From Macrostomum lignano (lineage: Eukaryota): 64,000 nucleotides of DNA. Positions within the stretch are counted from its first letter, which is position 1. Each line of letters opens with the position of its first letter. Location of the stretch: positions 347,158-411,157 of the forward strand of contig NIVC01000380.1 of NCBI GenBank assembly GCA_002269645.1. The letters run 5' to 3'. The position numbers were made by a program, and so were the translations under genes. Below are positions 4,508 through 64,000 of the stretch, piece after piece. The notes under the pieces were generated by a model. It was given only the letters and a program-made list of their open reading frames with translations. It did no database searches and was not told the DNA's origin.

Positions 4508-7794
<3,287 letters not shown>

Positions 7795-12035: not shown

Positions 12036-12149
12036 CTAGTGCAAATGTTACTTCCGCTAATGCAATAATCGCTTTCTCAGGTTGTGCAACAATCCACGTC
12101 TCAGCGAGCGCAATAATCTCTTTTTTAGACAGCGCAGTAATCAGCTTCT

Positions 12150-41700: not shown

Positions 41701-42014
41701 ATTCCTCGTGTTGCTGAATTGTTGACATCAATGTTGTCACAAGAGATTTTTTGTCGTGCCATTGTCAAAATTGGCAATGTTGTTGCAACAACATTGATAC
41801 ATCTTTACTACTTTACTATGAGTAGTGCAGCGAGAGTTGTGAATGAAATAAAGTAAGGCATAAAATTGTTAAACCAGAATTATTTTAGCTCTGAACATAC
41901 CTGCTATTCTAATTCAAAAGAATGGAAACGTGTTTTAAAATTTTAAATTAGTAATATATTTGAGGTTTACAATTCGAAGTTTTTCTCACGAATCAACCTC
42001 AACCAGTCGTATCT

Positions 42015-42520: not shown

Positions 42521-42639
42521 ATCTGCTTCATACCAACGTCTTAATCGCTAAAATCACAGTAACACAATAAATTCGGAACCCACTTTCCCTTTTTACTTGC
42601 GTTTATTAACGATGCGTACACTGTTTTCGAAGCGCAAGG

Positions 42640-42975
42640 TCCTCTACCTGCGAATGCTGCTTTTTGTCGGCGTTTGAGTTGAGGCTACTGATGTTCAAGA
42701 AGCGACAGCTCTAGGACCAGATGGACAAGATGTCTATGCCACGTTTCCTACTGCGGAAGTGAAAAAGTACGAGGATTTGATCAAGAAGTTTGATGTCTAC
42801 TGCCAGCCTCTCTCCAACGAGACATTTGAAAGCTATCAGCTGCGCACCAGAATGCAAGGAGAAGCGGAGGACTTCGACCAGTTCATGGGTTCTCTACGCC
42901 AGCTCGTGAAGCGCTGCAACTACAGCAAACCTGACAACGACGAGATCAAGAACAGCATCTTCGATAGCTTACAGC
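42640..42975 (+). pseudogene. Ty3/Gypsy gag fragment (mirror ~43975-44310, -)
   Basis: LGPDGQDVYATF...FDVYCQPLSNETFESYQLRTRMQGEAEDFDQFMGSLRQLVKRCNY. Confidence 0.75.
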
Positions 42976-43514
42976 CTGTCCTTCTGGCTGTTGGGGTGAA
43001 GCGCGAGAAGCGCGGGCCCGCTCACGATACGCCCGAAGGTTCTTGGCTTGGTCCAGCGCGCGCTGGATCAGGCCGGACCTCCGGGTGCTCCTGGCGGGTC
43101 TGCGATTGGGATTTCCGGTTTCAGCAGCGCGAACTGCCCTACCAGGCATAGGATCGGCCGTTTGCCTCGGCTTCTTTGCCGGAGGAGCCTAGGCCCCAGT
43201 TCCGGTTTCGGAAGCCTTGGCATTCTTGGCTTCATCAGCTTTCCGCTCCTCGCAACGGAGGATGGTCAGCTGAGTCAGACCAAGAGCCTCTTCACGGCAA
43301 TCGATTCTCGAACCAGAATCGGTTCGGATTTCCAAGAAAAAAAGCAGTATAACTATTTAACTTTGTTGAATGTTTGACTGCCTTAACAGCCTCAATTCGC
43401 ACTATTTTTCACTTTCTTCTTGGCTATTGCCATTTAATAATCACAATTTTAAAGCACTAATATCCCTCTAGTTTAGGAGACAAAAAGTTATACTTTACAA
43501 ATTGGTTCTGGTTC

Positions 43515-43890
43515 TAGAACCAGAACAAGCAATATGAAGAGCCTTCAATATGGATTGTGGACTTAGGCGGCAAGTGCTCAGCCCAGTCATTAGAGAGCCC
43601 TAGGATCACCGTAGCCCCCTTCTCCTTGCGGGAAGTGGCGTGGTGTAGGAGCCCGTTGACCTCAAGGTCAGGGTGCAGCTTTAGCAATATTTGCCTAAGC
43701 TGATCTCCGGACTTAATGGCACTGCCGGCCGGGATCCAGACGCGAAAGCGCTGGCGAAGACGAGCTTGCCGAGCTTCTTGGGCCAGTTCAGCTTTGGCAG
43801 AAGCTCGCGTAGACTGCGGCTGCTCTCCTCCGAGCTGCACCAGATGAAGATGCAGCCGTCGGTCTTGGCGGACTTGACCACGCTCACAGG
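43515..43890 (-). pseudogene. Possible LOA-type LINE ORF1 remnant in the palindrome spacer
   Basis: GCIFIWCSSEES..., RFRVWIPAG...ILLKLHPDL...GATVILGL; resemblance to DUF4780-like ORF1 is from memory only. Confidence 0.4.
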
Positions 43891-46800
43891 GCGCTGGACC
43901 AAGCCAAGAACCTTCGGGCGTATCGTGAGCGGGCCCGCGCTTCTCGCGCTTCACCCCAACAGCCAGAAGGACAGGCTGTAAGCTATCGAAGATGCTGTTC
44001 TTGATCTCGTCGTTGTCAGGTTTGCTGTAGTTGCAGCGCTTCACGAGCTGGCGTAGAGAACCCATGAACTGGTCGAAGTCCTCCGCTTCTCCTTGCATTC
44101 TGGTGCGCAGCTGATAGCTTTCAAATGTCTCGTTGGAGAGAGGCTGGCAGTAGACATCAAACTTCTTGATCAAATCCTCGTACTTTTTCACTTCCGCAGT
44201 AGGAAACGTGGCATAGACATCTTGTCCATCTGGTCCTAGAGCTGTCGCTTCTTGAACATCAGTAGCCTCAACTCAAACGCCGACAAAAAGCAGCATTCGC
44301 AGGTAGAGGACCTTGCGCTTCGAAAACAGTGTACGCATCGTTAATAAACGCAAGTAAAAAGGGAAAGTGGGTTCCGAATTTATTGTGTTACTGTGATTTT
44401 AGCGATTAAGACGTTGGTATGAAGCAGATTCGTCTCCATGGCGTGTCCTTGCGCAGGAGCGCTGTTAGCGGCTCGGCGACGTGAGACAGGTTCTTGATGT
44501 AGAACTGGAAGAACTTTGCAAAGCCAAGGAATGAGGCTAACTTTGCCGTATTGGTGGGTGCCTTGAGTCCCGATACGGACTCGGTGTGCGACTGGAGAGG
44601 TTGAATTCCCGCTGCGCTGACGCGGTGTCCAACGAACTCGATCTCCGACGCCTTGAAGGTTGCACTTCTTGAGGTTGACGGTTACTCGATGCTGCAGCAG
44701 CTTGTCCAGTACCTGAAGTACGCGACTTTCGTGCTCAGCTTCAGTACCGGCGTGAACGGCGATGTCGTCTTGATAGTGAACGACGCCTCTGATGCCTTGG
44801 AGGATCTTGCCGACGAGCTTCTGGAAGGCCGCCGGATCCGAGCTGATGCCGAACGGCATGCGTCTGAAACGGTAGAGGCCGAATTCGGTGTGGAAGCAGG
44901 TCAGATTCTTGGCGTCATCGTGCAGAGGCAGCTGTAGATACGACTGGTTGAGGTTGATTCGTGAGAAAAACTTCGAATTGTAAACCTCAAATATATTACT
45001 AATTTAAAATTTTAAAACACGTTTCCATTCTTTTGAATTAGAATAGCAGGTATGTTCAGAGCTAAAATAATTCTGGTTTAACAATTTTATGCCTTACTTT
45101 ATTTCATTCACAACTCTCGCTGCACTACTCATAGTAAAGTAGTAAAGATGTATCAATGTTGTTGCAACAACATTGCCAATTTTGACAATGGCACGACAAA
45201 AAATCTCTTGTGACAACATTGATGTCAACAATTCAGCAACACGAGGAATATCCGGAAAAAGGAATACATTCTGTCAGTCTGCAGTTTCTAGATAGCCCAA
45301 TAACAGGCTAAACTGATGGAAACACAAAAAACACAATTTATTGTGCGTACTGTGCTTCTGGGCATAAAGCTACTCCTAATGAGCATATTGGTCTCTTTAA
45401 CTTGGAAAGAAACAGTATCCCTGAAAAAGGAATACATTCTGTCAGTCTGCAGTTTCTAGAAAGCCCAATAACAGGCTAAACTGATGGAAACACAAAAAAC
45501 ACAATTTATTGTGCGTACTGTGCTTCTGGGCATAAAGCTACTCCTAATGAGCATATTGGTCTCTTTAACTTAGAAAGAAGCAATATCCCGGAGAAAGAAA
45601 TGCATTCTGTCAGTCTGCAGTTTCTAGTTAGCCCAAGCTAAACTGATGGAAACACAAAAGCACATGAAATTGCGCATTTTATATAAAATACATGAAAAAT
45701 ATTGAAATTGCAGGGTAATATTTTTATTTACAAATCAAGAAAAATTAATAATTCTTGATGTATATTTTTTGAAATAATAATTATGGTTAGGAGAAAAAAC
45801 AAGAAAGAATTTTATGAGTCAACAATGTTATAAATATACAGAATTTTTTAAATTTTTTATAATTACAATGAAATCAAATATAAAAATATTTATTGGCTAG
45901 TAATATTACATAAAATTACAAGTAATTAAATAGGCTAGTATAGTCAATATTTTTATTGCATGTTATAGTTATTATTTTATAAAAGTATACTAAGTGCCTG
46001 CCTGATATAATTGAATTTATACTTAATGGAAAAGCACTATGGAATCTTAAATAGATATTATGTTTATAATTTGACTTATTAGAAGAGAAGAAATATTAAA
46101 ATAGAGGTTTTAACAAGTTGTAAAAAGCATCAAGCCAAGAAATGCCAATTTTATTTTATTGCCTATACTGATATTAACACTTTGACTGCATGTTTCAAGA
46201 CGTAATTGAAAAATAAATCTAAAAATATAGGAAGTAAAACAGCATAAAAGGCTTCATTATTAAGTATGGCCACAAAAATACCACACGGCGTATAAATATA
46301 ATGTATTTTTTATGCGCAAGTGCGCTGTAACTGCCTGCTGCCACGTTGCGCAATAAAGACTCGCAGTTCGAAATATTTTTTAATGTTTTCGCTTTGCATT
46401 AAAATAAATAGCTTAACAGTCAACACAAAATTGAGTGCAAAAATGCTGATGAAAGTGATAAAACTTTAATTTGATAACTTTTTTAATAGGAAAATTTACT
46501 ATTTTTTGACTCGGGAAACGCACTTAATTTCGTTCACCGCGGAGTTCAGCGGCAGTCATTCAACACCGGAATTTAACAAAAAAACGTTCTCCTGCAGTTC
46601 AGGAGCAACGCGCAACGCTGAAATTTTATGCGCACGTCGAAATCTGCCTATATTTTGCTTTGAAATATTGCATGACAGGTTTTCAGCTCTCTGGAAGGAT
46701 TTATTGGGTTCACCGCCGGTTTCACCCCCCAAAAAATAACAAAAATCGCCCTCCTGATGTCCAGGGGCAACGCGCAGAGCCAAAAATCTAGGCGCATCTC

Positions 46801-48142
46801 TAGTTTTACTTGCGCTATCGATTATGTATATTTTTAAGCCTTAAAAATAAAGTTAAAAATCCGGTGAACCCAAGTGCCGGTGAATTCAGTAGTTAGTTTA
46901 GTAGTTACGAGCTCAGTGAATTTTCGGCTGCTTTCAAATCGACGCCGGAATTTCCGGGAATTCGAGTCGATTTAACAAAACTATGGGTGCGGTGGGAGCT
47001 CCAACAGCTGAGTACCTCCGGCTCAGGGGAGGGTAGCTGTCATCGTGGCTGCACGGTCGATTTTTTCGTCCTTCAGAATGCTAGGAGGACAGGATGGGCC
47101 GATACGGAAACTGTAGTCAAATGGTAGTAGATTTATCTAACATTACTTTAATTTTAGTGGATTGCTGTCAACACCGTGGTAATTCACGAAGCAAATCCCT
47201 GAGACTTGATTATAGCTAGAACTTAGTTTAAGAACTCTTGATTCTAGATCACTAATCCGAGGTCAGAAGTCTTGGAGAACAATTTGATTTTTTAAACAGC
47301 GCCTTAATTAAAATACGCTCGTCCAAGGGCGTTGACTACTATGGCAAAATATTTTTAAATATTAGAAAAAATGCTAAATAATTAAACGCAACTATTTGTA
47401 TGTCGAGAAGTTCTGGATTTGGGCAATTCGGACTCAGTAGTATGGACCTCGGGTCGTATTGAAATTTTAGAAAAATGTACAGTACATTCCCGTGCAGGTA
47501 TTTCCTTTCTGCGAGGCTGTTTTACATGTAAGTATTCCACTCGAGTCTGGCCAAGGCGGGGCGAGCCCAGACTCGTTTATTAGATTCTCATGAGCTTACC
47601 ACGGTTGGAAGGAGGGGTTTACCCCGGGTGGAAGGTTACACTGAACGGAAAATTAAAAAAGGAGGTTCACACTGTGCGCGTCTAAATAGATTGAAATTTG
47701 TCGGAATTGATTGGAAATTTCGCAGTATGAGCCATAGATAGGAGGACAGAAAAAGCCAATTCATAGCCAACTGTCGGAATTGATTGCAAATTGTTTGAAT
47801 TGATTGCAATTGAATGCACGTCCGGCCAAGAACTACCATAAACTGTCTGAATTAAATGAAAAGATTTTTACTTTGATTGCACGATTGCCAAAATAGAATG
47901 GAAAATGTGTAGAACGCAAAAAGCCATAATATTAGTAATAAAATAATATAATACTCTGCAAAGACACTTGTGGCAGCTCTTCTCGTATATGGTTATGTAT
48001 GCATGCAGCATTGATAGCCATTGCTCAATTCTCCTCTGCCCGAGCTAGCCCCCTGCCTGCCAGTTAGTCTGTCCTTGAACGCATTCGCTCCCTGCTATGT
48101 TTGGCCGCACAAGCCGCATTATAGCGTCTACTCTTGGCCATC

Positions 48143-48456
48143 ATGTCGTCCTACATACGGTTTGATTCTGCTGCCGCTGTCAACTCTCGGGTCCGGAGTG
48201 GCTCATCTGGTGGGAGCCAGCAGACACTGACTTCGGCGGCGGCGGCGGCGGCGGCAGCTAGGATACCAGCAGCTGGCACAAATGTTTCGCAGCCTAAAAT
48301 CCGTGTGCCGGCAACAATGACCATACAAGTGACAGCACCTCCGTCGGCAGCCTCATCTGTGACAGAGGCAACCGCTGCGGTTGACGAATGGAACGACGAC
48401 GCGGCATTGGCTGAGCTGGACTTTGCCGCCATCGACGAGCTGGAAAAATCGGCGAA
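48143..48456 (+). CDS. Host gene exon or 5' part interrupted by the Polinton; product unknown
   Basis: GC-rich ORF MSSYIRFDS...DEWNDDAALAELDFAAIDELEKSAK; runs into AGTAGTATAG at 48457 and stops at 48464-48466. Confidence 0.6.
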
Positions 48457-48723
48457 AGTAGTATAGAAAAAGACGCTTCTAGACCCAGAGCACTTTTTTA
48501 ATGACCGTTTTAAGGGTCTAGAGGGGGGACACGGGGGGTAAATAAAAAAACACATCTAAACACCCTTAACACATCTAATCACCCATAATCACCCCTGACA
48601 ATAAAAATCATTCCCAACACTTCCAAACACTCCCCAACACTCCCCTCGCGTCCCCCCTCTTAAGACCTTACAAACGGTCATTAAAATAAGGTCTGATCTA
48701 GAAGCGTCTTTTTCTATACTACT
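48457..48723. repeat. Left-terminal inverted repeat (fold-back): ~75-bp arms, first 27 nt perfect
   Basis: AGTAGTATAGAAAAAGACGCTTCTAGA at 48457 and its reverse complement ending at 48723. Confidence 0.9.
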
Positions 48724-49137
48724 ACTCTATAACCCCTTGCCCGCGCCGCAGGCGCGAAGGGTCACAAAAGAGTTTAAACTGAGTCATGGTAATAGTAACA
48801 CTCAACAAAAAATTACTCTCATAGCCACTATTGGCTAGCTTGCAAAATCTTGCCGTAGCAGGAATTGAACGCCCACTCAGCCATCCAACTCTATAAAAAC
48901 CACAGCCATCAACCCAGTTCTAGCTCATCTCTCAGGAAGAAGAAGACAGGCTCCGCGCGTCACAAGTAAAATGGGGTGCCCACCATCAATGAATAAGTTT
49001 TTAACAAATCGTCCAGAAAAATTCTGGACGTCCAGAAAAAAATGACTCAATGCAGTATATACACCATCTTGGGTTGAAAAATATTCTTTTGTGTGTTCTC
49101 GTATTCTTTTTTTCTGTTACTAAAAATAGAACAAAAA

Positions 49138-49536
49138 ATGACACACGTTACACATGTGCAAAATATAAATGAGTATCAGGTAGGAGATCCAATTGAATAC
49201 CGAGGTGAGGGACTTTTTGATTTGGTTGGAACAGCAGCAAATTTTGTTAAAGACAATATGGGGCTTATAGGGCAAGCTGGCTCTGCAGCAGGCTCTATAA
49301 CAAATGCTGTAAAAGGAGGAATTGAAGCAGCTAGAGCGGCAGAAGAACTAAAGAAATTGAGAGATTTTAACGACACCCTCTCACAAATAAATGCAATAAA
49401 AGATTTAAAGCTGGCACAAGCCGCACAACCAACAGAAACCCCCACGAAAACCACGCCAATAAGTAATAAAGATATTCAGGATTTTAATAAAATGTTAAAT
49501 ACTATTAAAGGTGGAAAAGGATTAAAGAAATTTTAA
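49138..49536 (+). CDS. Putative virion core/minor structural protein with GxGL motifs
   Basis: RGEGLFD and KGGKGLKKF; AAAAAATG start context. Confidence 0.6.
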   Translation: MTHVTHVQNINEYQVGDPIEYRGEGLFDLVGTAANFVKDNMGLIGQAGSAAGSITNAVKGGIEAARAAEELKKLRDFNDTLSQINAIKDLKLAQAAQPTETPTKTTPISNKDIQDFNKMLNTIKGGKGLKKF

Positions 49537-49546
49537 CAATATAAAA

Positions 49547-50542
49547 ATGGACTCAGTTAATGATGATGAAAACCGGTTATATTTTATAGGAGAAATTGTA
49601 GATACCTTAAATCTTGATGATAATAAGCAAACCCACACAATGTTAAAAAGATTGGATCGATTAGGTAAAAAGTTTGACTACGACATCGATACATTTAAAC
49701 TCGCAGCAAAATATGCACAAGAAGGAAGGCCAATATCCTTTAAGAATCGCGGCAGAAATTATAGGTTGACAGACTCCGATGTGAAATTTTTAATGGAGAC
49801 TCACACTAAAAAGGACGGCGGATTACTACCCATTCTACCGCTTCTTTTAGGACTTGGCGCAGCTGGAGCAGTCGGTTTAGCCGGAAAAAGAATTCATGAT
49901 AATGTAAAACAGCTAGGAGAGTTAAGAGCGAAACAGGGGGGAATCTTGCCCCTTGCAGCTTTGCTCCCAATAATTTTTGCAGGAATTGGAGCAGCTGGAG
50001 GAGTTGCTGGCGGAGCAGCTGGAATTGCAAAAGCAGTAAATGACAAAAAAGCTGCGGACGAAAAAGCTAAAAGAGAGGCCGAATTTCAAAGACAGCAAAT
50101 AACGCAGGACGCACAATTCAAACAGAAACTTATTGATACCATTAATAGTAGTTCAGCAACAGCAGAGCAAAAAAGAAATGCAGAAGCTAGGTTAGCAGCC
50201 GGAAAAGGTTTACTCTTGCAAGGAACAAATCACGGGAATGGTTTGGTACTAAAAGGAACAACCCAAGGAAGTGGAGTTGTCGCAGATAAACTACATGAAT
50301 TTGGCCAAACTTTAGAAAAAACGGGTGAGAAAGCTAAAGGATTTTTTGACAATATTGGATCCAATTTTAGGCCAGCAGTTCAGAAGATTTTTACTAAGTT
50401 AGGAAAAGATTTTAACATCATTGAAAAACACGACGGAAGCGGATTATATCTCGAAATGCGACCAAAAGCAGGTTCAGGAATTTTCTTAAATTCAAATGTT
50501 ATGGGCAATGGATTGCTATTACCAAAAGCAGATCTCGAATAG
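49547..50542 (+). CDS. Adenovirus pX-like core protein precursor, 331 aa
   Basis: Two GG-[LI]LP-hydrophobic segments (GGLLPILPLLLGLGAAG, GGILPLAALLPIIFAGIGAAG) resembling adenoviral pX; six GxG-[LVI] motifs in the C-terminal part. Confidence 0.7.
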   Translation: MDSVNDDENRLYFIGEIVDTLNLDDNKQTHTMLKRLDRLGKKFDYDIDTFKLAAKYAQEGRPISFKNRGRNYRLTDSDVKFLMETHTKKDGGLLPILPLLLGLGAAGAVGLAGKRIHDNVKQLGELRAKQGGILPLAALLPIIFAGIGAAGGVAGGAAGIAKAVNDKKAADEKAKREAEFQRQQITQDAQFKQKLIDTINSSSATAEQKRNAEARLAAGKGLLLQGTNHGNGLVLKGTTQGSGVVADKLHEFGQTLEKTGEKAKGFFDNIGSNFRPAVQKIFTKLGKDFNIIEKHDGSGLYLEMRPKAGSGIFLNSNVMGNGLLLPKADLE

Positions 50543-50625
50543 ACTCCTGGGGGGTGGGTCAAGACACCAAAAACGCAAATTAAAAAATCAATAATTCAAA
50601 CATTATATAAATTTTATTCTATAAA

Positions 50626-53600
50626 ATGGAAGCAATTTTAGCTCAAATCGACAACCCTGAACTTAGAGCACAATTAATAGCTCAAATCGATGCACAACGA
50701 ATTGCCGATAGGGCTGAAATAGAAGCAAGAATTAGGGCAGAAAATGAGATACGTTTAGAAAGACAATTAAATGATATTAATAACCCCCAACCACAAGGAC
50801 AAAATGGAGCTGAAGTAATATATATAGATATAGATATAAATACAAATTATAAAGAATATTTTAAACAAATGAAAGATAAATTAAAGACTATATTAAACAA
50901 TTATACTATAAGGCCAAATAACAAACGACAGCCAATTAAGTATAAAATAGAAGTTGAAACAGAATTTAAAAAACCAAATATTCTTAATGCAAATTCAGAA
51001 ATTGAAGTAATAAATAACTTTTCACAAGAATCATATAAAACATTATTATCAATGGGAAATTACAACAATCAATTCGATCAAATAGAAGCTGAGTTTGATG
51101 AATGGATAGATAAGATGACAGAAAACGGATCTGGGTTTATATTTGTATCTTGTAATTCAGCAATAGTAAAGATTGCACCTATAGAAATTCTTAAAGGACG
51201 ATCACATATGAAGCTCAAATTTAAATCACCTATGATTATAAATCCAGACAATAAAGATAATAAATGTTTATTATGGTGTTTATTAATTCATAAATATCAC
51301 AATCAAGTAGAATCACACATTAATAAAATATATAATTATAGACAATATGAGGATGAAATAATAATGAAAAACATATCATACCCAGTAGCAATAGATGATA
51401 TATATAAGATTGAAAAAATGAATGGTTTAAATATTAATGTTTTTACAATTGAAGAACCAGAAGATCTAGAAGAAATTCAGCAGGTCGATCCAGAATGGTA
51501 TAAGAAAAGGTGTTATCTTGTTAAGCCAGCAACTGATATAACAGCACCAGATCAAATCGATCTTTTGTACATGCAGCGCGAAAATGAAACACATTATATA
51601 TACATAAAAGATATTAGTTCTTTTTTAAGAGAAAATAGAAATAGATATCCACTATGTAGAAATTGTTTTACATTTAAAAAGGATGAAACAGCTCTTAAAA
51701 ACCACCAACGATTTTGTTTAGATCACAAATTTACTAATGCTATAATGCCAGCATCTTCAGATGCAACCCTAAAGTTCCAACAACATTATATGGCAGTTAA
51801 AAAACCAATAGTAATATATGCTGATTTTGAAGCAACAAATGTTCCCTTAAAAGAATCACAGACGGCATCTGATGACGGTCATGCAAAGCATGCGACCCTA
51901 CGGGACGGTGAATGCACAAAAAAATTAGCACAACAGTTTCCTAATAGTTATTGTTATATGTACACTCCGTAGCTGATCATATATTTAAATCAAGGATGAT
52001 TACTTACCACGGTAATGATGCAGCTAAGCACATGGCAGAATCATTAGTAAATGTATTTGAATATATTCAAAATCAATATGATAAATTATCAAAAAATATT
52101 AATATGACAAATAAGGATAGAGACAATTATAAAAATGCAACAAATTGTTTTATGTGCAAAAGATATTTAAGTAAGAAAAATAAGATACGAGAACATTGTC
52201 ATCTAACGGAAATATCGAGGGGCAGCATGTAGATCATGTAATGCAAAAGAAGGAAAAGGATGTAAGGAAATACCAGTATTTTTTCATAATGGTTCCGGAT
52301 ATGATTTTCATTTCTTAGTTCGAGAATTGCTTCATTTAGGAAAGGATGAATATGAAATAAATATATTACCTAAAACATCAGAAAATTACATATCAATAAC
52401 ATATGGTAAGAAATACTCCCATCTAGTTTTTCTAGATTCCTTGAGATTCTTATCAACATCTTTAGCAAATGTTGTTTCATCATTAGTTCCAAAACCATGG
52501 GATTTAGAAATAGTAAAGAAAAACTTTCCAATACTATTGAATCGTTTCAAAAAGGAAAAACTATCCGAGGAAGAACTAATGCTATTAACTCGTAAGGGCA
52601 TCTACCCATATGAATATGTAACATCTGAAGACGTATTTTTTCATACCGAATTACCCCCAATTGAAAAGTTTTATTCAACATTATCACAAACAAACATAAG
52701 TGAATCGGATTATGAACACGCTCAAAAAGTATGGAAATACTTTAATTGTAAAACATTTAAAGATTATCATAATCTATATCTTAAAGCAGATGTTCTCCTA
52801 TTAGCTGATGCATTTGAAAACTTTAGGAATCATACATATGAGAATTTTAAAATTGATCCCGCATATTGTTTCAGTGCACCGGGATTAACATGGGCTTGTG
52901 GTTTGAAACATACAGATGTTAAGATTGATTTACTAACTGATCATGATATGTTGTTAATGATTGAGAGAGGAATTCGCGGCGGATTCTCGGGTGTACTAGG
53001 AGATAGATATACTAAAGTAAATAATAAATATCTACCAAATTATAATAAAAAAGAAAAATCATCATATGTATTATATCTAGATGCAAACAATTTATACGGT
53101 GGTTGTATGAAACAAAAATTACCAATAGCTGATTTCCAATGGGAAGATGACCCCGATTATTACAAAAATATTCCCGAAGGAAGGGGCTGTATTGTAGAGG
53201 TGGATTTGCAATATACTCGGGAAGCAAAAGCAAAAACATATAAATATCCTTTAGCTCCAGAGCATTGTTCAGTTAATGAAGATGATTTATCACAAACACA
53301 AAAAGATTATCTTAAAGTAGATAATGCAAAACATCTAGCAACAAAAAAATTAATATTAAATTTACATGATAAGAAAAACTATGTAGTGCATTATAAGCTT
53401 CTACAATTTTATGAAAAGCAGGGATTAAAAGTGTCTAAAGTACATCGAACAATATCGTTTATTGAGGAAGATTGGTTAGCTAAATATATTGACTTTAATT
53501 CAAATCAGAGACAGATGTCAAAAACAAATTTTGAGAAAGATTATTGGAAATTAATGAATAATGCTTTTTATGGAAAAACGGTTGAAAATATTAGAGATAG

Positions 53601-54609
53601 AACCCAATTCCATTTAGAAAAGGATATTGATAAAGCAAAGAAATATTTCTCAAAACCTAACTTTAAAGACTTTATAAAATTTGATGATAACTTTATGGGT
53701 ATTCATATGAGAAATAAAACAACAAAATTTCTTAAACCAATATTTATTGGAATGGTTGTTTTAGATTATGCAAAGCTGGTAATGTATGAATATTATTATG
53801 ATGTTATAAATAAAACATGGCCAGATAACTATCCAATATATGCAGACACCGACAGTTTGGTATTTAAGGTTGAAACAGAGGATCGGGCAAAGCCCGCGAA
53901 CCAAAGGTTCGATGTCTATAAAGATATGGAAAAAATTAAGGATACATTGGACACATCAGACTATCCGGATAACCATCCTTTAAAATCAGATCAAAATAAA
54001 AAAGTTGTACTTAAAATGAAAGATGAATTAAATAGCAAAATCATAACCGAGTTTATAGCAATAAGATCAAAATGCTATGCATTTAAGGTTTTAGGACAGG
54101 AGGGAGAGGTAAAAAAAATAAAAGGGGTATCAAGAGCAGCAGTAAAAAAGATAACATTTGATGATTATAAAAACGTACTTTTAGATTACCTTAATACAAT
54201 TGAAAATTATCATGCTCCACAATATCGATTAAATTCAGATAAGCATCAGATGTTTGTCATCGAGACAGATAAAAAAACATTAAGTCCATTTGATGATAAA
54301 AGATATTTAGATGATAAAATTAAAACATATCCATATGGTTTAAAAGAAGAGATAAAAAATATGATAAAAGATAAAAAACAAAAAGAAGATATAATAAGTA
54401 AATATAATGAATACAAAGCGGCAATAAATAATTATTATTACGATTGTGATTGTGAATCCGAATGTGATTGTGAATATAATACATTTCTAGAATATGAAAA
54501 AGATATAGATAATTATTATTCAACATTTCCAAAAGAACTTAAAAAATTAAATAAGGAAAAAGTCTTGAATAACTGGAAGAGATTAACAGAAAAATTACTT
54601 ATCGGATAA
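50626..54609 (+). CDS. polB: Protein-primed family B DNA polymerase with N-terminal extension, zinc finger and endoVII-like insert; two frameshifts (~51960, ~52210)
   Basis: IYADFE (ExoI), HNGSGYD (ExoII), LDSLRFL, YLDANNLYG, KLMNNAFYGKT, YADTDS; CFMC...REHCHLT..YRGAAC..CN. Confidence 0.95.
53884..53911. other. GC-rich double-hairpin element (type example), in-frame insert in polB
   Basis: CGGGC-AAA-GCCCG directly followed by CGAACC-AAA-GGTTCG; relatives at 51880, 54603, 60301, 60757 and 63909. Confidence 0.85.
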
Positions 54610-54974
54610 AATCCGCGACCCTTCGGGCGGAAAAAAACTAAAGCATGTAATTGTTTAAGCATAATATCCATTTCGATTTCATATAATATTGAAGGCCAAT
54701 TTTCCTCGCAGTCGTCAGGGTAACTTAAACAATCCTTTATTTTTTTCCTAAGTTTTTTTATTTTTCTAACCAATCTATCTATTTCAATTTCAATTACTAT
54801 TTCAGCATAAACAATATCTTGTCTTAAAAAACGTTTTCTTTTATCTATCTCATATCGGATGGGAAACATATCGTCCCCATACTCATGATATTTCTGAGAT
54901 ATAATTATATTTATTTTTTTATTAATATCATTAAGTTCACGCTCTTTAGTGATAAGGATTTTTATCGTATCCAT
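54516..54974 (-). CDS. Hypothetical viral protein (coiled, charged)
   Basis: 152-aa ORF with AAAATG start; converges on the polB end. Confidence 0.55.
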   Translation of the reverse strand: MDTIKILITKERELNDINKKINIIISQKYHEYGDDMFPIRYEIDKRKRFLRQDIVYAEIVIEIEIDRLVRKIKKLRKKIKDCLSYPDDCEENWPSILYEIEMDIMLKQLHALVFFRPKGRGFYPISNFSVNLFQLFKTFSLFNFLSSFGNVE

Positions 54975-54989
54975 TTTCTTATAAAAAAT

Positions 54990-55322
54990 TTAGTCTTCGT
55001 CGTCATCCTCCCAAACAGCCGCCAATTTTACAGTCCTATCACTCTTTTTATTATTTGTTTGTTTTAGTTTAAATTGCAATCCACCCTCGTTGCAGTATTT
55101 CATAACAAACGCTTTAGGTTTATTAATAACTAAAACAGGAAAATTTTTAACATCATCTCCGCTTAGACATAAAATTTTTTGCCCATCTAATTGTAAAAAT
55201 ATTGATTGAAGCCCAATAAATTTAACCTGTCTCAAACATATAATATTATATTCTTTATTCTCCAACATATTGGGTGTGAGATAATTAATCACATTAGAAT
55301 CGGTTTTGAACCAGCTCTCCAT
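54990..55322 (-). CDS. Hypothetical viral protein, 110 aa, acidic tail
   Basis: TTAAAAATG start; tight gene packing. Confidence 0.6.
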   Translation of the reverse strand: MESWFKTDSNVINYLTPNMLENKEYNIICLRQVKFIGLQSIFLQLDGQKILCLSGDDVKNFPVLVINKPKAFVMKYCNEGGLQFKLKQTNNKKSDRTVKLAAVWEDDDED

Positions 55323-55348
55323 TTTTAATCTAAAAAAATAACAAAAAA

Positions 55349-55861
55349 ATGAAAGACATTTATGTTTGTAATAAATGTAATGTGACTATGCACAGAGGGC
55401 AAACAGCAAACGGAGATATATATCATATGTGTTATTCATGTTCTAAAATATATCAATTTGAAAAAACAAAAAAGATTGAAAACTCATATTACTATTTTAA
55501 AAATACAATTTTAAGAAATCTTACAAGAGACATTTCTGATCCAATTTTAATTCCCGGAAATAATGTTTATTTATATAATAACTTTTTCCATTTAAATAAA
55601 GGAAAGGGATTAAGTTCGAAAGACTCCGAAAGGATTTTAATTTTAGTTGGATATTATTTCAATTTTCTTATTCGAGAGAATACAAAGTTTATAAGGATAG
55701 GTAACATACCTAACGAAATGTTATTGAAAAAGTCATTGGAATTTTTATGTATTGATAAAAAATTTAAACCTAGAATCAGAAGAGAGTTACCACTTTGGGA
55801 AGAATATATAACATATGCATTAGAAAAACTAAACAACCTGAAGTTCTACAGTACTTCCTGA
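55349..55861 (+). CDS. Hypothetical protein with N-terminal zinc ribbon (CNKC...CYSC)
   Basis: ORF track; AAAAAATG start. Confidence 0.65.
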   Translation: MKDIYVCNKCNVTMHRGQTANGDIYHMCYSCSKIYQFEKTKKIENSYYYFKNTILRNLTRDISDPILIPGNNVYLYNNFFHLNKGKGLSSKDSERILILVGYYFNFLIRENTKFIRIGNIPNEMLLKKSLEFLCIDKKFKPRIRRELPLWEEYITYALEKLNNLKFYSTS

Positions 55862-56484
55862 CCGCGGGCTTTGTGCCCCAGTAGCAATAGTTTCAGGTTC
55901 GTAAATGCCTAATGTTTCTATAGGTGGAGCTTTGGGTTTATCGAGTCTCAACTCTTTTAATTCCATATCGGTAAAAGTTTCAACATCTAAAATTCTATTT
56001 CTATCTTTTAAATATTTTTCATATAATTCAACCGCGGTTGATAATTCATGAATCGTTATCTCTCCGTCATCCAATATTTTTTGCACATATAAATATAATT
56101 GATTTTTATATTGCTTGCAACATCTCTTAAAGATTTATATTTTTCCTTTCTTTTTTTAAGATATAATTTAATTGCTAAAAGTATTGATAAGTTCCTGATC
56201 AATTCAAAACCTGATATTGAGCCAATTGAAATACCTAAAAATAATTGAGATAAATTAAGAGTTGGAATAGATTGTAAAATACCTAAAACGATTACACATA
56301 ACATTGATAAGCTTCCAAATCCAATATTGAAAAAGTCCATATTTCTTATATGGTTTGAAACTCTTCTTACTTTTTTAGCATATAAATCATAATCATAGTT
56401 AATACGATCAACATTACTTAACATCTGACCTTTACGTTGGTTGAACCGGTCGCGTTCCCATTTATCTGCTTCAGATACCGACAT
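55829..56484 (-). CDS. Two-transmembrane viral protein, one frameshift near 56085
   Basis: Two hydrophobic helices, then KKRKEKY...KILDDGEITIHE; resembles a small ORF I recall as common in Mavericks. Confidence 0.6.
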
Positions 56485-56797
56485 TCTCGTCTATTTTTAA
56501 TAGCACCAAAATGAATTCCCCACGCTCTTTGGGGATTTGCCCGGAGCTTAATAGGTATTGTATTGGAGTTATTCTTTCTTTTTTCTCCCATTTAAATCCT
56601 ATTTTCCAAAACTCTTGAAGTATAATATGATTTTTTAATAACTTAATTAATTCTTGAAGCTTCTTATTATCCTGAACATTTACAGTACTAAATAAAAATT
56701 TGGTATGAGATTTGAATGTTTTTATATTTGATTCTTGTTTAGGAATAGGAATATAGACATTATTTTGCCGAATCGATGGAGTTCTACTAAAAGCCAT
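56471..56797 (-). CDS. Hypothetical viral protein, ~108 aa (MAFSRTPSIRQ...)
   Basis: TATAAAATG start at 56797. Confidence 0.55.
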   Translation of the reverse strand: MAFSRTPSIRQNNVYIPIPKQESNIKTFKSHTKFLFSTVNVQDNKKLQELIKLLKNHIILQEFWKIGFKWEKKERITPIQYLLSSGQIPKERGEFILVLLKIDENVGI

Positions 56798-56813
56798 TTT
56801 ATATAGAAATATT

Positions 56814-58859
56814 TTATATTTGAGTAGGAGGTTTTTCCAAATAACCAGTAGATGGAAAAACATAACCAAAAGATGTGCTACCACAAACGGCTGCGCCACG
56901 AATAAAATGTGCAGCATCCGATCCTCCAGTTCGAGCACCAAAACCCATAAGAGTTCCACTTTTATCCAAAGTTCCCCAAGTTCCACTATCATATGTGAAA
57001 ACGTTCTGCCCCAATGAGGGTATAAGAATCACCAGCAACATTGTATGTATGAATTCTATACCAAACCCTTTGATTTAAAATATTAATTTCAAACAGATGC
57101 CAATCACCGTTATCAATATTTGCATAGGCTACAGTTTGATCCGCGTCAGTATTAACATCCGCGCGGCTTGATCCGTCTGATTTTTTTGAACTCCAAAGTA
57201 GGCCAAATTTATCATGCCACTCACTAGCAAAAACTATCAATCCGGCGTCGGTTGATAATCCAGATCCAAATTCCGATGTTGGACGTTGGTGACAGTATGC
57301 ATAAAACCAAACCGCATCTGCACCATCTCCTGTAGCATTAGCAACTCGGAAAAAGAAAGACGCAGATATATTTTGAAAATGTGTGAAATTGAATTGTAAA
57401 GCACCACTTACTCCAGAAGTTTCACGAGTAATTCTAGCGCCGTTTTGATAATCGATATAAGAAGCGTCACCAATTAAAGAACCGACTGGATATATATCTC
57501 CGGCGGTTGTTGGATTTTGATATCCAGACCAATTACAAATTACTGGTTCGAACAAGGCCGCATCAATAGCAGGTATTCCATCCAATTTATTTTTATCGCT
57601 TCCAGACATTCTACCATTTGATGTTGGAGTAGCTAGCTGATCTACGTACGCTCGCGGAACTGCAGAAAGTATTTGAGTTGGCCAATTAAGATCTTGAATT
57701 TCAACACGGTGTTCAAATAATTGTATTTGACGAACCTCGATAGGTTGTGTACCGGTACCACCAGTTGGGAAGAATACGCTATAATATTTCCAAAAATTAG
57801 TCGTTAAATTAGATAGAGCAAATGATGTTGCTTGAACTGGTGATCCCGACGTAGTTAATGTCGTCCATGAATCGGTAGCAACATTTTTTGCGCGAACCGA
57901 CCACCCGAGGGTATCTCAATTGTTTCACTGCCTGTAATTCTTAATTCAAATATTCTTCTATTATAACCTAAAAATTCAAATTGAATTTCCATATTGGTTG
58001 TGGTTCCGGTATTTGGTGACCATTGTGTCGCAAGGCTTCCATCTCCAACTCGAAAAGCTGTGTTGCCATTTTCAGATGCTGTAAGAACAACATCAGGATT
58101 TGAAGTATTTGATGTAAGCGGCGTGGTAAAAATATCGGCGTCGGTTGCATTAGCTCGCTCGTTTACTTGGCCTAGAGTTATCGAGTCTGCGTTATCTGTT
58201 CCAAATAATAAATTTGTTAATTTAAAATTATTCATATTAATATTACCACTACGAGTGGCAACTTGATTATCGACATAGTTCTTATCAACCACTGAATCAC
58301 TAGTTGTAATTGAAACATTTATAATTCGGTTGTTGCTCATATCTAGGTTTCCGGTTGCGGTGGTTTGAACATAACGTGAATCAGAATCAGTTCGAGAATA
58401 AGAATCAGTTACATCTCTTTTTAAATTTAATCCATTATCAACTTCGGTTTTGGTATAAGAATCGGCTACGTTCCGTTTCAAATTTAATGAATTATCAACT
58501 TCGGTTTTGTTATAAGAATCAGTTATATCTCTTTTTAAATTTAATGAATTATCAACCTCTGTTTTGGTATAAGAATCGGCTGTATTGCGTTTTAAATTTA
58601 ATGAATTATCAACTTCGGTTTTGGTATAGGAATCGGCTACGTTCCGTTTCAGATTTAGTGAATCATCTATTTGAGTTTTGGTATAGGAATCTGCAACATT
58701 TCTTTTTAAATTTAATTTATTATCAATTTCAGTTTTTTTATAACCTTCATCCTCATTAATATATCGATTATCTCCAAATGTAACACTTATTCCACCAGAT
58801 GTGCCACCACCACCACTACTTGTTGTTCCGTTCCATGAGGGTGTTCCAGAAAATAACAT
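56814..58859 (-). CDS. Fibre-like protein: 19-aa repeats, stalk motifs, F5/8C (discoidin)-like domain, L-type-lectin-like tip; frameshifts ~57920 and ~57050
   Basis: 6x YTKTEVDNSLNLKRNVADS; GNINMNNFKLTNL...DSITLGQV; NGRMSGSDKNKLDGI; GADAVWF...GFGARTGG...HFI. Confidence 0.75.
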
Positions 58860-58908
58860 TTTTTACTGTCTATTTTATAGAGTCTAAATCGCCCTAAAGT
58901 CTTCGGGT

Positions 58909-59307
58909 TTACACGAGCTTCATTCGAAAGTCGATATAAAAATACAACGCAGCCTGCCCGCAATAACTTTTATCAAAGGTTTGAAATTGTTCGTGATGAT
59001 CTCCACATAAACGATTTTTAGTATGATTAAATTTGTCTTTTATTTCCTGTAACGGAGGAAGCGCGTATGAATCAAAAAAATAAACAAGTTTAGGTTTGGA
59101 ATAAACTGCCGACCAATGAACACCATTTTCTTTTGTTGTTTCAATATTAACAATGAAAGATCCATATTGTGGTAAGTCTTTGATCTCATCTCGCATAACA
59201 CATCTGAATGGTTTTATTTTTAACTGCCTCGCCCAATTTGTTAATTCGATATTGCTTGTTGTGTCCGTTCCATATCTTTGTTTAAAATCATCCCACGTCA
59301 TGGTCAT
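58909..59307 (-). CDS. Adenain-like maturation cysteine protease
   Basis: TTSNIEL, GVHW (His), FFDSY (Asp), QFQ....YCG (Gln, Cys). Confidence 0.9.
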   Translation of the reverse strand: MTMTWDDFKQRYGTDTTSNIELTNWARQLKIKPFRCVMRDEIKDLPQYGSFIVNIETTKENGVHWSAVYSKPKLVYFFDSYALPPLQEIKDKFNHTKNRLCGDHHEQFQTFDKSYCGQAALYFYIDFRMKLV

Positions 59308-59499
59308 TTTATGTTCTGAAAAACTCTTGGTTTTAGTTAGTTTCGTAGGTGTGGGTTTTAACAATTCCTTTCTTATTTTATCAGCTTGTAACTGCTTAAT
59401 TTTGCTAGTTCTAGTTCGTAATTATCTTCAGCTTTTTTAACTTTTTCTGATTGTTTTTTTATTAAATTATTATTATTATTATTACCCATTTTTACTATA

Positions 59500-60285
59500 G
59501 GATTAACCTGTTTTATACGTAAAATTATTGTTATTGACTGCCCACCAAAACTTATTAATCTATCGCTTTCATCTACAATCCTAATATAAATTGATTGAAC
59601 ATATATTGATTTAATGGGTAATATATTGGGGTTTGGGTGAACAATCATTTTCTCTCCAATTGGAACAGCAAGAAATGGGATTGAATAAATAATTCCACGT
59701 TGAACCAAAACTCCATTATTATCTGTTATATAACCGCCGTTTGATATGTCGGTTGTTATATTAATTGTATTGACTCCCCCTCAATGTTTCCCACGTATCA
59801 CCGGTGCTTGATGTGGTAACTATTCGGGAATTAAATCCAAGTATGGTTCTGAGTGAATTTGCAATTGTGAAATCAACCTGATATCCGGATCCTAGTGATA
59901 GTGTGAATCTGCCAGACGGTAAATCAACACCTATAACAATTGCTCCTGCTACCCAATCACCATTAGTTGTTGTTAATTCTCCTTCTATATAAGCATTCAA
60001 ATCAGTATAGCTATACGCTCCTGGGTTAACGCTAAATGTTGTCCAATTGGCTCCGGAATCTTTAGAATATCTAAATTGATTATTTGTTGCATTAATTAAT
60101 TGAGGCATGTTGAAAACCGAAAATAGAATTAAACCTATTTGATAACTTAGGCTTTGATCAAGTTGTAATGGATCGCGCAATTGAATCCGTTGCTCGCTGG
60201 TTGTCATTATAAACTGTAATGTTGTACTAAATTTTGAATTAGTTCGATCTACCAATTGTTTTATAGTATTTAAATTTGTAGTCAT
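59500..60285 (-). CDS. Minor capsid protein (penton, single jelly roll); frameshift near 59785
   Basis: INATNNQFRY, PGAYSYTDLN, LRTILGF, VNTINITTDI, IRIVDESDRLISFGGQSITIILRIKQV. Confidence 0.85.
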
Positions 60286-60334
60286 TTTTTAGTGGGAAAT
60301 CGAACTTTGTTCGCGGACTCCGTCGATCGTGCTA

Positions 60335-61130
60335 TGTCTCTTCTTCCTCATTATCTTCTTTTATCAATTTGTTAAAATTCTATGTTTCCTTTTTCTAACC
60401 TCGGATTGATATAAATATGTTTGTATTGGCTATCATCCCAAATTTTTTTACACATACTTTTAAATGGTTTTGCATCCAATCCGGGATTAAATCTAGCGTG
60501 TATATTTTGTAAATCATAATTATCTAAATCAAACATTACACAACAGCTAGCATTCTTTTTTATAATCGATTCTAATTCTCTAAAGGATTGAGTAAGATAA
60601 AAAGCTCCAATTCCATCTCCTCTACCACTAACAAAAATTTCCTTTTGTAATTCTTGATCACCGTCATTAATACAATCAAAAATAATTAGTGTTTTATCAT
60701 GTTTTGGAATTTGATCATAGGCTAATCGGGTTGATACTCTAACAGTTGGGGGCGATCGGACGAAGTCCGCGACCCTTCGGGCGATTCGGTGATGTTTTCT
60801 GGCTGTTGTGCCATTGTTTTACATAAATCCTCAATGTCTGCTAGATTAAATCGCGGTTCGTCATCATCCTCATATTGCTCATATGCTCTTAACATTCTAA
60901 ACAAGACATCTTTTTTAATTTGTTTTTTAATCCATGTTTAAGAAATTCATAATATTTTATTCTAGGTTTATTAGTATAAATTATTAAATTATTATAGTCT
61001 AACATTCCATCTGTTGTTAATAATCGTAAACAAAGTGTGTTTTTCCTTTACCTGATCCTCCGATTACTAAACAAAGAAAGGATCATTTGGAAATATTTTA
61101 TTGTGTTTTGCTTTACCATTTTTAAAGAAA
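60335..61130 (-). CDS. A32/FtsK-like packaging ATPase, multiply frameshifted
   Basis: Walker A IGGSGKGKT (~61040-61070); Walker B TLIIFD; SGRG...FYLTQSF. Confidence 0.85.
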
Positions 61131-61214
61131 TAATTTAAATAGGCGCGACGGTCGGAGACCTGCACTCATTTTACAGGCGCGTCGAACAATCGTGCCATCA
61201 GCTTTAGCAATTGA

Positions 61215-62632
61215 CATATATTCCTCTAGAAACAATACGTGGCGTCATGCCTGATTACCGTTTTATTAATCTCTAACATATAATTAAGTCCAATATTGGC
61301 TACGTTTTCTTTCTGTGCGTTAGATCATAAACAACCACTGGATGAATGTTTAGAAACTCTGTGGGTGTGTACTGAGGGACGCATACGCTTCATTTTTAGC
61401 ATAATCTTGATAATATTTTATAAAATCATTAACATTATTATTTGCTATATTTAAATTTAGGGGTCTTTAACCGGATAATATTGATCATCACCTGCAGGCG
61501 GATATTCTGAACATTAAACTCGTTAATAGCTGCAGCCGCATTGTCTGTTGCGGTGGCTGCTTGTTCTGCTATGGCACCCGGATTGAAGCCAATATAAATC
61601 CCCATTTGCTCTTTTACTCCTTCTATTTGTTATCTTAAACCAAACAAAAATATATCTCACCCGACGTTTTGATGTCAGTATTTGCCACTGGAATGAATCC
61701 TGGTTATTATTAATGGTTCGCATAAAATGTCGACGATTCAAATAAAATATTTCCTGATCATGCGTTAACTGATTATCGATGTGTTTTAAAAGTGGGGCTG
61801 TTACCTCAATAGTTGGTACGACTAATTGAATTGAATCTATACGAACTGCTATATCGGTTGAAATTGAGGTTCCATAAAGTATCCTAGGCTGATATCCACC
61901 AGATATTTGCAACTGTATCCCAAATTTTAATCCTTTCCATACCCGATTTGGTGAAAGAACCCAAATAGTGGAAAGATTGAAAAGTCCTGCTCATATGCTG
62001 TTGCTGTGGTTAAAACCGCGACTGGGAATTTATTCTGACGATCTATAAAACCAGTATTAATATCTTTTGTATTAGTCATAGTGGTTACAACTGGAACTAT
62101 GTTTGTATTAAGGTAAACAATTAGCGCTGCAGTATCTGCACCGGCTGCGTTTTGTACATTAGGGAAAACTACTGCTTGACCGTTACCTTTATCCGGCATC
62201 CACCCAACATTATCACCAACTTGTTTTGATAAATAAGTATAATTTAAATGTTTCAAAACTCCATTAATCTCTGCGGGGTTTGATGATGTCTCAACCTCAG
62301 CACCATTAACAGTTAGTTGAGCTTGGGAAAAACATTTATAAAACCAATCATTTTCTATTATTATTCCGGATCGATCTGCGATATCTCCGGCTGCAAGAGC
62401 AGTTCCATCATTTCTAGTATACAACCATCTAACGCGGAAAAACGCATTTTTCATATCCAATATAGTGTTGGTTGCGCCGATGTCAAAAGTTACCGTTCCA
62501 GTAGTAAAGTTATTTGAATTATCACTTGTTGGTAGGGTATAATTTAAATCTCTTGCTCTGACCTCATTAATATACTGTCGGTGCTTTTTTGAAATGAAAT
62601 TTATCACTCCACATAGTTTTTGTTTCAGCCAT
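61215..62632 (-). CDS. Major capsid protein (double jelly roll), multiply frameshifted
   Basis: FSQAQLTVNGAEVETSSNP, IDSIQLVVPTIE, FQWQILT..RVRYIFVWF, VQNIRLQV..QYYP. Confidence 0.85.
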
Positions 62633-62666
62633 TTTTTTAAGTTAAAAAAGTTTTTTATGTTAAAAA

Positions 62667-63330
62667 ATGAGTCAATTTATGGACGTTGATGGAGAGTTAG
62701 CGATTTATAAAGAGAAGCAAAGATATTCTGATTTTGTTAGAAATTTACAAAAAAGAAAGTTAGGAATACAATTAGCGGGTGAAAGATTTGCTGCTCCTTT
62801 TGTTAATCCTATTACTGGGAAAATTAGTGAACTAGAAAAAACAGATAAAGATCTTCTGGAAAAAATTGCTAAAATACTGAGCCAAAAGAGGATGAAATTT
62901 TGGATGAGCCGCCTGCTTATGATGTTGATCAAGCTCAATTGAGATTGCAGAGATTAGACGTGCAGAGCGGGGCGATCGGAACAATATCCAAGAGTACCAG
63001 CTAGTATTGCTGCGACAGATTTAGGTAATAATAATTATCGAATTGGTGGAGTTGATAAAAATCGAAATGAACTATATAGAGAATTGGGTGGAGCATATAA
63101 TATTGTTATAACCCTAGGGTAAAATTTAACCCTGATTTATATACTAGGGATGAATTAATAAGTGCTAGAATTTTTTATGATGAGTTAGGAGGAGCTGTTA
63201 AAAATACCAGCTTGTATAAAAGGATTGTTAATTCTATAAATAACAAACCAGCTGTTGGTGATGGATTTAAAACACACGAAAACTTGTTTTAGCTGCTGCG
63301 AAAGCTGCTGGACATACTGGGTTTAATTAA
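62667..63330 (+). CDS. Hypothetical viral protein, frameshifted
   Basis: Starts 34 bp from the MCP ATG, divergently; reading continues in shifted frames. Confidence 0.5.
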
Positions 63331-63353
63331 TTGTTAAATTTATTTTTTATAAA

Positions 63354-63964
63354 ATGGAAACTAATAAGATTTGTACTAAGTGTAAACAAGAAAAACCGAT
63401 GACGAAAGAATTTTATTTTGGAGAAATGATTCAAAAAAATTTAGAAATGATTGTCGATCTTGTCATAATACCTCATCTGCTATTTGGATAAAAAACAATA
63501 AAGATAAATGGAATGAATATAAAAAAATAAGTATCACACTGATGATAATTACAAACATATTGTTTTAATTAGAAATAGAATAAATTGGCGTTGAAAAATT
63601 TTAATGACAAGGACTATATCTCATATCTTGGTTGCACAAAAGAATTCTTTTTTGATTGGTTAAATTTCACAAGAAATTATTATGTATCAAAAGATTATAC
63701 TGGAAAGTTAGATATTGATCATTTCATTCCCGCTTCTTCGTTTAGTTACAAAGATGAAGATCAGATGAAAAAGTCTGAAATTGGAGAAATAAAAGATACT
63801 TAACTAGCGTAGATAATAACTATAAAAAAGTTAAACAACCAACCATTGAAGAGTTTGCAAAACAATTGGTGCTATCATGTATTTTTAAGGCTATTAAAAA
63901 TGAGCAACCGACGAAGTTCGCGTTCCTTCGGAACGCATCAATAGTGTTGAAGGAGGATTGTTAG
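63354..63964 (+). CDS. HNH-like endonuclease with zinc ribbon, giant-virus type; frameshifted
   Basis: CTKC...CRSC; YLGCTKEFFFDWL; LDIDHFIPASSF; WRNKRYL...DNYKK. Confidence 0.7.
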
Positions 63965-64000
63965 ATGTTCAAAAAGGATTAACAAGCTTACACCAATCTT

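Follow-up and report, generated by a model that had tools for sequence, protein, structure and literature searches.

A stretch of 64,000 nucleotides of Macrostomum lignano DNA (assembly GCA_002269645.1, contig NIVC01000380.1, positions 347,158 to 411,157 of the forward strand; hereafter referred to as the window) was found to carry a Polinton-like element from position 48457 onwards. We read it, with a probability of about 0.8, as one chromosomal copy of a multicopy M. lignano Polinton/Maverick family with a divergent double jelly-roll (DJR) capsid and a protein-primed B-family DNA polymerase (pPolB) of the endonuclease-VII-bearing type ('Beta' or group 1). Five hallmark genes, namely those for pPolB, major capsid protein (MCP), penton, packaging ATPase, and protease, were backed by independent searches. 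The family is divergent and apparently undescribed for this host, and its left end shows an odd feature. An earlier first-pass annotation had described an endogenous Polinton/adintovirus-like virus with a near-complete virion module here; this core of the interpretation was upheld, with a full virion gene set.

The element starts with an AGTAGT terminus and runs past the end of the window (64000). Of the (AGT)2//(ACT)2 ends of the terminal inverted repeats, the left one was found and the right one lies beyond the window. The GC content was 32% from 49138 on and 43% for positions 1 to 48456, and 95% of the region from 49138 to 64000 was covered by listed gene spans (Table 1). The genes for MCP, ATPase, penton, protease, and a fibre-like protein follow one another in this order on the minus strand, and a 132-aa open reading frame (ORF), a pX-like ORF, and the pPolB gene are located on the plus strand (49138 to 54609), exactly the co-oriented virion block and opposite-strand polymerase and core genes that the first-pass annotation had reported. 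Nearly every gene was split over several frames in the window sequence, on which that annotation was silent. No Rfam matches were found across 47000 to 64000.

The host was identified as M. lignano because an exon at 28112 to 28861 was 98% identical to an M. lignano protein with SIN1 domains. Exons of this host gene, encoding a TORC2 subunit, were located at 27111 to 28861 on the minus strand. In sequencing run X6, a contig matched the flank (48181 to 48456) over 276 of 332 letters and stopped matching at the element border, a pattern that would be expected of an empty or other allele. The flank frame that runs into the element looks acidic and of low complexity at its N-terminus and is cut by the insertion, and no longer homolog of it was found (0 of 8,000 candidates scored).

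Table 1. Features of the element and its left flank, ordered by position in the window.
Feature	Position	Strand	Basis or remarks
Host flank open frame, possibly an interrupted exon	48143-48456	+	Runs into element terminus; ORF list
Left terminus and inner inverted copy (~83-bp fold-back, ~103-nt C/A-rich loop)	48457-48723		Repeat search, single-stranded DNA fold
Segment upstream of first gene, 345 nt, in a minority of copies, with TATA-/CCAAT-like words	48764-49108		Run contigs; motifs by eye
132-aa ORF with G-x-G-L motifs	49138-49536	+	ORF list
331-aa pX-like core protein	49547-50542	+	Pfam Adeno_PX, E 0.01, under curated cut-off
pPolB with endonuclease VII insert	50626-54609	+	Three frames; changes of frame near 51960 and near 52210
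Pair of small ORFs (152 and 110 aa)	54516-55322	-	ORF list; no notable matches
170-aa zinc-ribbon-like ORF, CxxC-x17-CxxC, orphan	55349-55861	+	Motif read directly
Transmembrane/coiled-coil ORF	55829-56484	-	Two frames; resembles conserved membrane ORF of related loci
108-aa ORF	56471-56797	-	ORF list
Fibre-like protein	58859-56814	-	Three frames, switches near 57900 and 57050
Adenain-type cysteine protease	59307-58909	-	Alignment and profile
Penton (putative minor capsid protein)	60285 to about 59505	-	Frame switch near 59770
A32/FtsK-type packaging ATPase	61119-60372	-	Walker A GGSGKGKT; several frames
MCP, predicted double jelly-roll, divergent subfamily	62632 to about 61170	-	Several frames; changes of frame near 62590 and near 61950, recurrent below 61600
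Broken ORF	62667-63295	+	No match to the PZ-like profile
Zinc-finger and HNH-like nuclease ORF	63355-63964	+	Several frames; HNH_4, E 0.084

The largest piece of the pPolB gene product had 3,289 homologs at E<=1e-10 among 7,999 candidates, the best of which were 50-55% identical, and most of them carried PF02945; a pPolB of Mytilus edulis (42% identical) was among the matches listed. The Exo I-III, Pol A-C, and KxY motifs were present, and these catalytic motifs together with the homology to Polinton-type loci place the protein among protein-primed B-family polymerases. Further, the family profile matched T4 endonuclease VII (E 9e-4), and Pfam gave no match to PF03175 or to an N-terminal OTU-like domain. 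In the phylogenetic tree (FastTree; 121 of 157 rows, 36 having been dropped by thinning), the window sequence fell in a 59-row clade (support 98) with L031/P0008 as its neighbour (support 93, not starred), at a top identity of 57%. Ten close pPolB clusters were looked up; most of them comprise numerous members, and the contigs that carry these are hundreds of kb to Mb long, as expected of endogenous elements. No relative was found in viral contigs scanned with pPolB alone. Members of the closest pPolB clade (clusters P0004, P0022, P0028, and P0031) likewise occur in multiple copies on Mb-scale ENA contigs, which suggests an undescribed endogenous Polinton group in other eukaryote assemblies.

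For the N-terminal piece of the MCP, 26 relatives were identified among 1.84 billion representatives, with identities of 52% (P0121), 47% (P0122), and mostly 26-36% for the others. The structural model of P0121 (pLDDT 74.7, pTM 0.81) matched the MCPs of iridovirus, faustovirus, and mavirus at E ~1e-12, and also the PBCV-1 capsid protein and virophage and MELD capsids, with an Atlas TM of 0.77 to a PF21738 cluster. Through this modelled relative, the window protein is predicted to be a DJR capsid protein. PF21738 was matched by seven of the eight more distant family members tested, and the MCP family profile matched PF21738-positive hexons. The MCP profile run against the window pieces contains the window's own pieces, so that its matches there are circular. 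In a tree of 31 rows, in which the window row fills 45% of the columns, the window protein, P0121, and P0122 formed a clade (100/100) on a long branch, separate from the hexons of L002, L003, L006, L014, and L023, which are PF21738-positive. Viral contigs scanned with P0121 alone contained no relative. Surveys by profile may overlook this MCP subfamily, since Pfam does not recognize its capsid protein. At a related locus (L035:7674-8936), a capsid-like ORF that the window MCP profile did not match was found beside a clade-related pPolB (47%), a pairing that suggests swapping of polymerase and capsid modules.

The remaining virion genes were recognized mainly by profiles of their relatives. The ATPase matched Pox_A32 at E 0.018 and a profile of 12 relatives at E 2e-22, and the Pox_A32 cut-off is passed by its L002 and L041 relatives, which places it among A32/FtsK packaging ATPases. 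The penton label derives from gene position; a profile of nine co-located ORFs matched at E 3e-30 and 6e-15, in line with its assignment as a putative penton, and the protein was 33-41% identical to ORFs of L002 and L041. For the protease, the His, Asp, Gln, and Cys residues were invariant in all eight aligned sequences, and the profile matched adenovirus protease (E 4e-5) and pS273R of African swine fever virus (E 1e-5), consistent with an adenovirus-like cysteine protease. In the pX-like ORF, there are two GG-LLP stretches of hydrophobic character and recurring G-x-G motifs (probable protease sites). The 132-aa ORF had no homolog in 110 related loci; its motifs and position suggest that its product is a probable small core or membrane-active virion protein.

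No integrase had been seen before 64000 in the first-pass annotation, and a profile built from 11 related loci agreed with this: among 1,400 six-frame window pieces there was no match under E 0.35, and the one weak match at that value (at 18694) was outside the element. A tyrosine recombinase likewise gave no Pfam or PHROG match in 28 pieces, the right part of the element being outside the window. Integrase genes were present in the available part of 20 of the 30 related loci of 11 kb or more, and L032 (pPolB 52%) has an rve gene. It is rather likely that an integrase is encoded further right, past 64000.

Public sequencing data pointed to many copies. Twenty of 24 listed runs, from eight studies of one organism, contained 68-74% of the sampled words, and no RNA run was listed among those containing them. 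Depth and variants were read from contigs of four runs (four studies), contig depth being a rough guide and not a copy number. Element contigs had depths of 1527-3391 in run X6, 336-556 in X12, and 57-95 in X2, as against flank depths of 57-77 (about 20-59 times), 14.7 (23-38 times), and 7.0 (8-13 times), respectively. Since element contigs were thus about 8-59 times deeper than the flank, the family was considered multicopy. Run X1 covered the element fairly evenly but not the flank; high-copy DNA would give the same pattern, which is therefore uninformative on transcription, and X1 and X2 were taken as RNA by guess only.

The same contigs were compared with the window to examine the frame breaks. 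Over the MCP gene, an X1 contig departed from the window by a single substitution and by 11 gap letters along about 1590 nt. Out of 108 indel rows, 12 were shown, and each of these occurred in all four runs. Several frame switches were found in each of the ATPase and HNH-like ORFs. Because indels far outnumbered substitutions against the run contigs and recurred in all four runs, assembly error fits the frame breaks better than decay, and most of the breaks are probably assembly indels. Of 550 substitutions, 40 were shown and 32 within ORFs were scored: 19 were synonymous, 12 were non-synonymous, and the lone 'stop' difference was an artefact of single-site scoring in a codon with a second differing site; 21 were at third positions. 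The synonymous excess was 15/19 in the pX-like, pPolB, and zinc-ribbon ORFs together.

The odd feature of the left end, which the first-pass annotation had missed, is a fold-back of 267 nt, in which an inverted copy of the terminal ~83 nt lies at about 48640 to 48723. The outer 27 nt of the arms were 100% identical and the inner 43 nt were 77% identical. When 270 nt of the left end were folded as single-stranded DNA, the free energy was -65.9 kcal/mol (z -14.4), and none of 200 shuffled sequences was as good. Judging by distances to contig ends, an X12 contig with a depth (566) like that of the element body runs from about 48503 to 48736 across the inner ACTACT, so that the fold-back unit seems common to most copies. 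A separate miniature element inserted at this site was considered and rejected: a 6-bp duplication around the 267-nt unit was absent, as read directly from the sequence, and run contigs appear to cross the inner end. The fold-back may have arisen as a short left-end/right-end derivative fused to the body, or it may be a hairpin with a function; its bottom strand would set a paired 3' end before the element body. A parvovirus-like self-priming hairpin or second origin is not known to us in Polintons, and a literature search on Polinton hairpins brought up general papers. No comparable terminal pair was found in 110 related loci, a weak comparison in that only two of them include the AGT end.

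Adjacent to the fold-back, the promoter-like segment upstream of the first gene (48764 to 49108) was skipped or replaced in most copies of the four runs. The joint skipping it was present in all four, and the contigs over it were about 2-5 times shallower than the pPolB contigs.

Several observations weigh against the reading of the element as a copy of a multicopy Polinton family with these functions. Neither the window MCP pieces nor P0121 matched PF21738 by hidden Markov model (HMM), and the DJR fold rests on a relative of 52% identity. The pPolB gave no match to any solved polymerase structure. No rve integrase, right terminus, or target-site duplication was found within the window, and 10 of the 30 long related loci lacked an integrase in the part available. 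In the ORF starting at 49138, 8 of the 13 classified differences were non-synonymous (4/13 synonymous), only 32 of the 550 differences having been classified. Moreover, run contigs were spread evenly over the identity classes of 99% and above, 95-99%, and 90-95%, which indicates that many copies are diverged and that some breaks may be real decay.

Three other explanations, which overlap in part, were weighed. If the breaks were real throughout, the copies would be dead relics of an old burst, with no replication or capsids today. Nearly every window gene is broken, about a third of the run contigs are only 90-95% identical, internal deletion joints occur, and most vertebrate Mavericks are described as degraded (PMC8097293). 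A decayed fossil family is nevertheless unlikely: indels greatly exceed substitutions against the run contigs and the rows shown recur in every run, all catalytic motifs are intact, and the synonymous excess noted above runs counter to it. The excess of depth could instead come mainly from extrachromosomal replicating viral DNA, or from a virus of a co-cultured organism, with few integrated copies. The element-to-flank ratio does vary by run (about 8-13 in X2, 20-59 in X6), and free-ended adintovirus DNA is known from animal read sets (PMC8502044). Similar ratios were, however, obtained seven years apart in two studies (X6 in 2017, X12 in 2024), the copies are heterogeneous and partly deleted, element and host DNA are contiguous in the window, and the element's share is near-constant across eight studies of one organism, all of which makes this the least probable of the three.

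The third explanation concerns the left end. In an integrase-less polinton-like virus, the 3' end of the bottom strand would base-pair with the inverted copy further in, giving a hairpin that primes itself or a second pPolB origin, and integration would be passive or borrowed. The strength of the fold-back, the identity of its 27 terminal nt while the inner arms differ, its apparent presence in most copies (from the inferred span of the X12 contig), the absence of an integrase in 15.5 kb, and the lack of such a terminal pair in the 110 related loci are in its favour. However, the window ends inside the element, and the comparison with related loci is weak since an AGT terminus is included in two of them only. 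The pPolB motifs are normal, AGTAGT ends are typical of integrase-using Polintons, and the fold-back may go back to a past event in which a short left-end/right-end derivative became fused to the body. We regard this explanation as quite improbable. The bolder proposal of an active M. lignano polintovirus, whose conserved left fold-back would serve as self-priming hairpin or second origin, possibly without its own integrase, and which would form particles with the divergent capsid in an animal open to genetic work, is a similarly long shot. Should the fold-back at the left end prove conserved and functional, it would have a bearing on the way Polintons begin replication.

For the multicopy Polinton family preferred here, the mode of action would follow what is established for Polintons. 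Excision and reinsertion of the element would be the work of an rve integrase, whose gene probably lies past 64000 or in another copy, and the pPolB, using protein priming, would copy the linear DNA from its AGTAGT ends. This DNA would be packaged by the A32 ATPase into a shell of MCP, penton, and fibre, which the adenain-type protease would mature by cutting the pX-like core protein. That particles are formed is possible, yet somewhat doubtful.

The ICTV, the international committee for virus taxonomy, uses the names Eupolintoviridae and Orthopolintovirales for Beta adintoviruses/group 1 Polintons. The window element resembles these viruses, which were defined alongside Alpha adintoviruses by Starrett et al. 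(PMC8502044), in having a pPolB outside PF03175 with relatives carrying PF02945, an MCP family linked to PF21738 hexons, a penton, an A32 ATPase, adenain, pX-like and membrane ORFs, and an AGT terminus. It differs in that its MCP misses PF21738 by HMM and belongs to its own three-member clade (100/100), no named reference genome being included in the trees, and in lacking an integrase in the part seen as well as matches to Cupiennin-like and PZ-like profiles. Beta adintoviruses are characterized by a divergent PolB with an N-terminal OTU-like domain, a Terrapene-class hexon and penton, and GasderminX and Cupiennin accessory genes. The features of Alpha adintoviruses were not found: neither a PF03175-type PolB nor PLA2X gave a match in 28 pieces at E 0.1. 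Group 2 pPolBs have been surveyed elsewhere (bioRxiv 10.1101/2023.08.22.554363).

Vertebrate Mavericks are reported to have (AGT)2 ends and tens of mostly degraded copies per genome, and animal Maverick virions had not been observed, according to Barreat and Katzourakis (PMC8097293). The 5'-(AGT)2 end, the same core virion and replication genes, and the multiple copies are shared with them; the window element differs in its fibre-like, HNH-like, and zinc-ribbon ORFs and in the inner inverted copy of the terminus, which is not mentioned for them in the text consulted. The closest relatives (L031/P0008, L039, L041, P0004, P0121, and P0122) had pPolB identities of 50-57% and MCP identities of 47-52% (44% for L041). 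L041 shares the order of MCP, ATPase, penton, and protease, followed by a membrane ORF converging on pPolB. None of these relatives is near-identical, and all are without a homolog of the C-terminal part of the fibre or of the zinc-ribbon ORF.

In the protein collections no catalogued family was near-identical (best pPolB 57%, best MCP 52%; Repbase and Dfam were outside this comparison). As for the suggestion that the lineage may be undescribed for this host, a search of the literature on Polintons, Mavericks, and endogenous viruses of Macrostomum and Platyhelminthes did not bring up any account of this family; Repbase, Dfam, and subscription journals were outside the search. Polintons are, on the other hand, already known from flatworms. 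Planarian Polintons are silenced by PIWI-interacting RNA (PMC8532177), and Orthopolintovirales insertions were reported in Rhabditophora (bioRxiv 10.1101/2025.04.19.649669), and M. lignano may be among the species covered there. The words 'flatworm' and 'platyhelminth' do not occur in the accessible text of PMC8502044. The planarian (Schmidtea) Polintons share with the present element a flatworm host with adult stem cells (PMC8532177).

The fold-back aside, the element adds one family to the many thousands of Polintons. Expression, free DNA, and particles could be sought conveniently in a family that is multicopy, has its virion gene set complete, and lives in a small laboratory flatworm for which many public data sets exist.

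The accessory genes had been called unusual in the first-pass annotation, which proved overstated. The HNH-like ORF was 42% identical over 50 aa to an ORF directly behind pPolB in L031; its label was thus supported by homology, and because the homolog sits behind the pPolB of the nearest relative, the ORF is lineage content rather than an oddity. Fibre and lectin-like genes also appear on MELD virus maps (PMC8502044). The fibre-like gene of the window contains 57-nt (19-aa) repeats, tail-fibre-like repeats, and a beta-rich C-terminal part; it matched PHROG tail fibres (E 4e-6 and 2e-5), and homologs of the repeats were found in L005 and L021. The earlier lectin label gained no support from Pfam, PDB sequences, phage records, or viral contigs, none of which gave a match, nor from a single-sequence model (pLDDT 32.7). 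Judged by eye, there is a presumed resemblance to motifs of discoidin and of L-type lectins.

The zinc-ribbon label was retained in so far as two CxxC motifs were read directly, but no homolog to back it was found in Pfam, the 110 related loci, or a further search. A membrane-ORF profile from five loci matched 55832 to 56134 (E 0.0016 among 1,400 pieces); the 'GasderminX/PW' label of this ORF is provisional, like the naming of the accessory profile seeds. The broken ORF at 62667 to 63295 did not match a profile of conserved 'PZ-like' ORFs of six loci, and a Cupiennin-like small-ORF profile had no match in window pieces.

A GC-rich motif of 29 nt occurred twice with 90% identity, at 54601 to 54629, where pPolB meets the converging genes, and at 60755 to 60783 in the ATPase region; a related word was found near 48745 to 48765. 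The motif is possibly a terminator or processing signal.

Other repeats were located outside the element. A perfect (100%) inverted repeat of 3,007 nt with an 831-nt spacer (40053 to 46897) contained long terminal repeat retrotransposon-like reverse transcriptase fragments (by eye) and represents either a fold-back of very recent origin or an artefact of the assembly. An unbroken 1065-aa ORF (4508 to 7705) resembled, by eye, a non-LTR retrotransposon reverse transcriptase with RNase H, and two related hAT-like transposase remnants were recognized by eye at 32971 to 35859 and 3 to 1544. In addition, the window contained a tandem satellite with a 24-nt unit in about 97 copies (11957 to 14570) and a (GAGAG)n-type run at about 8600 to 10000.

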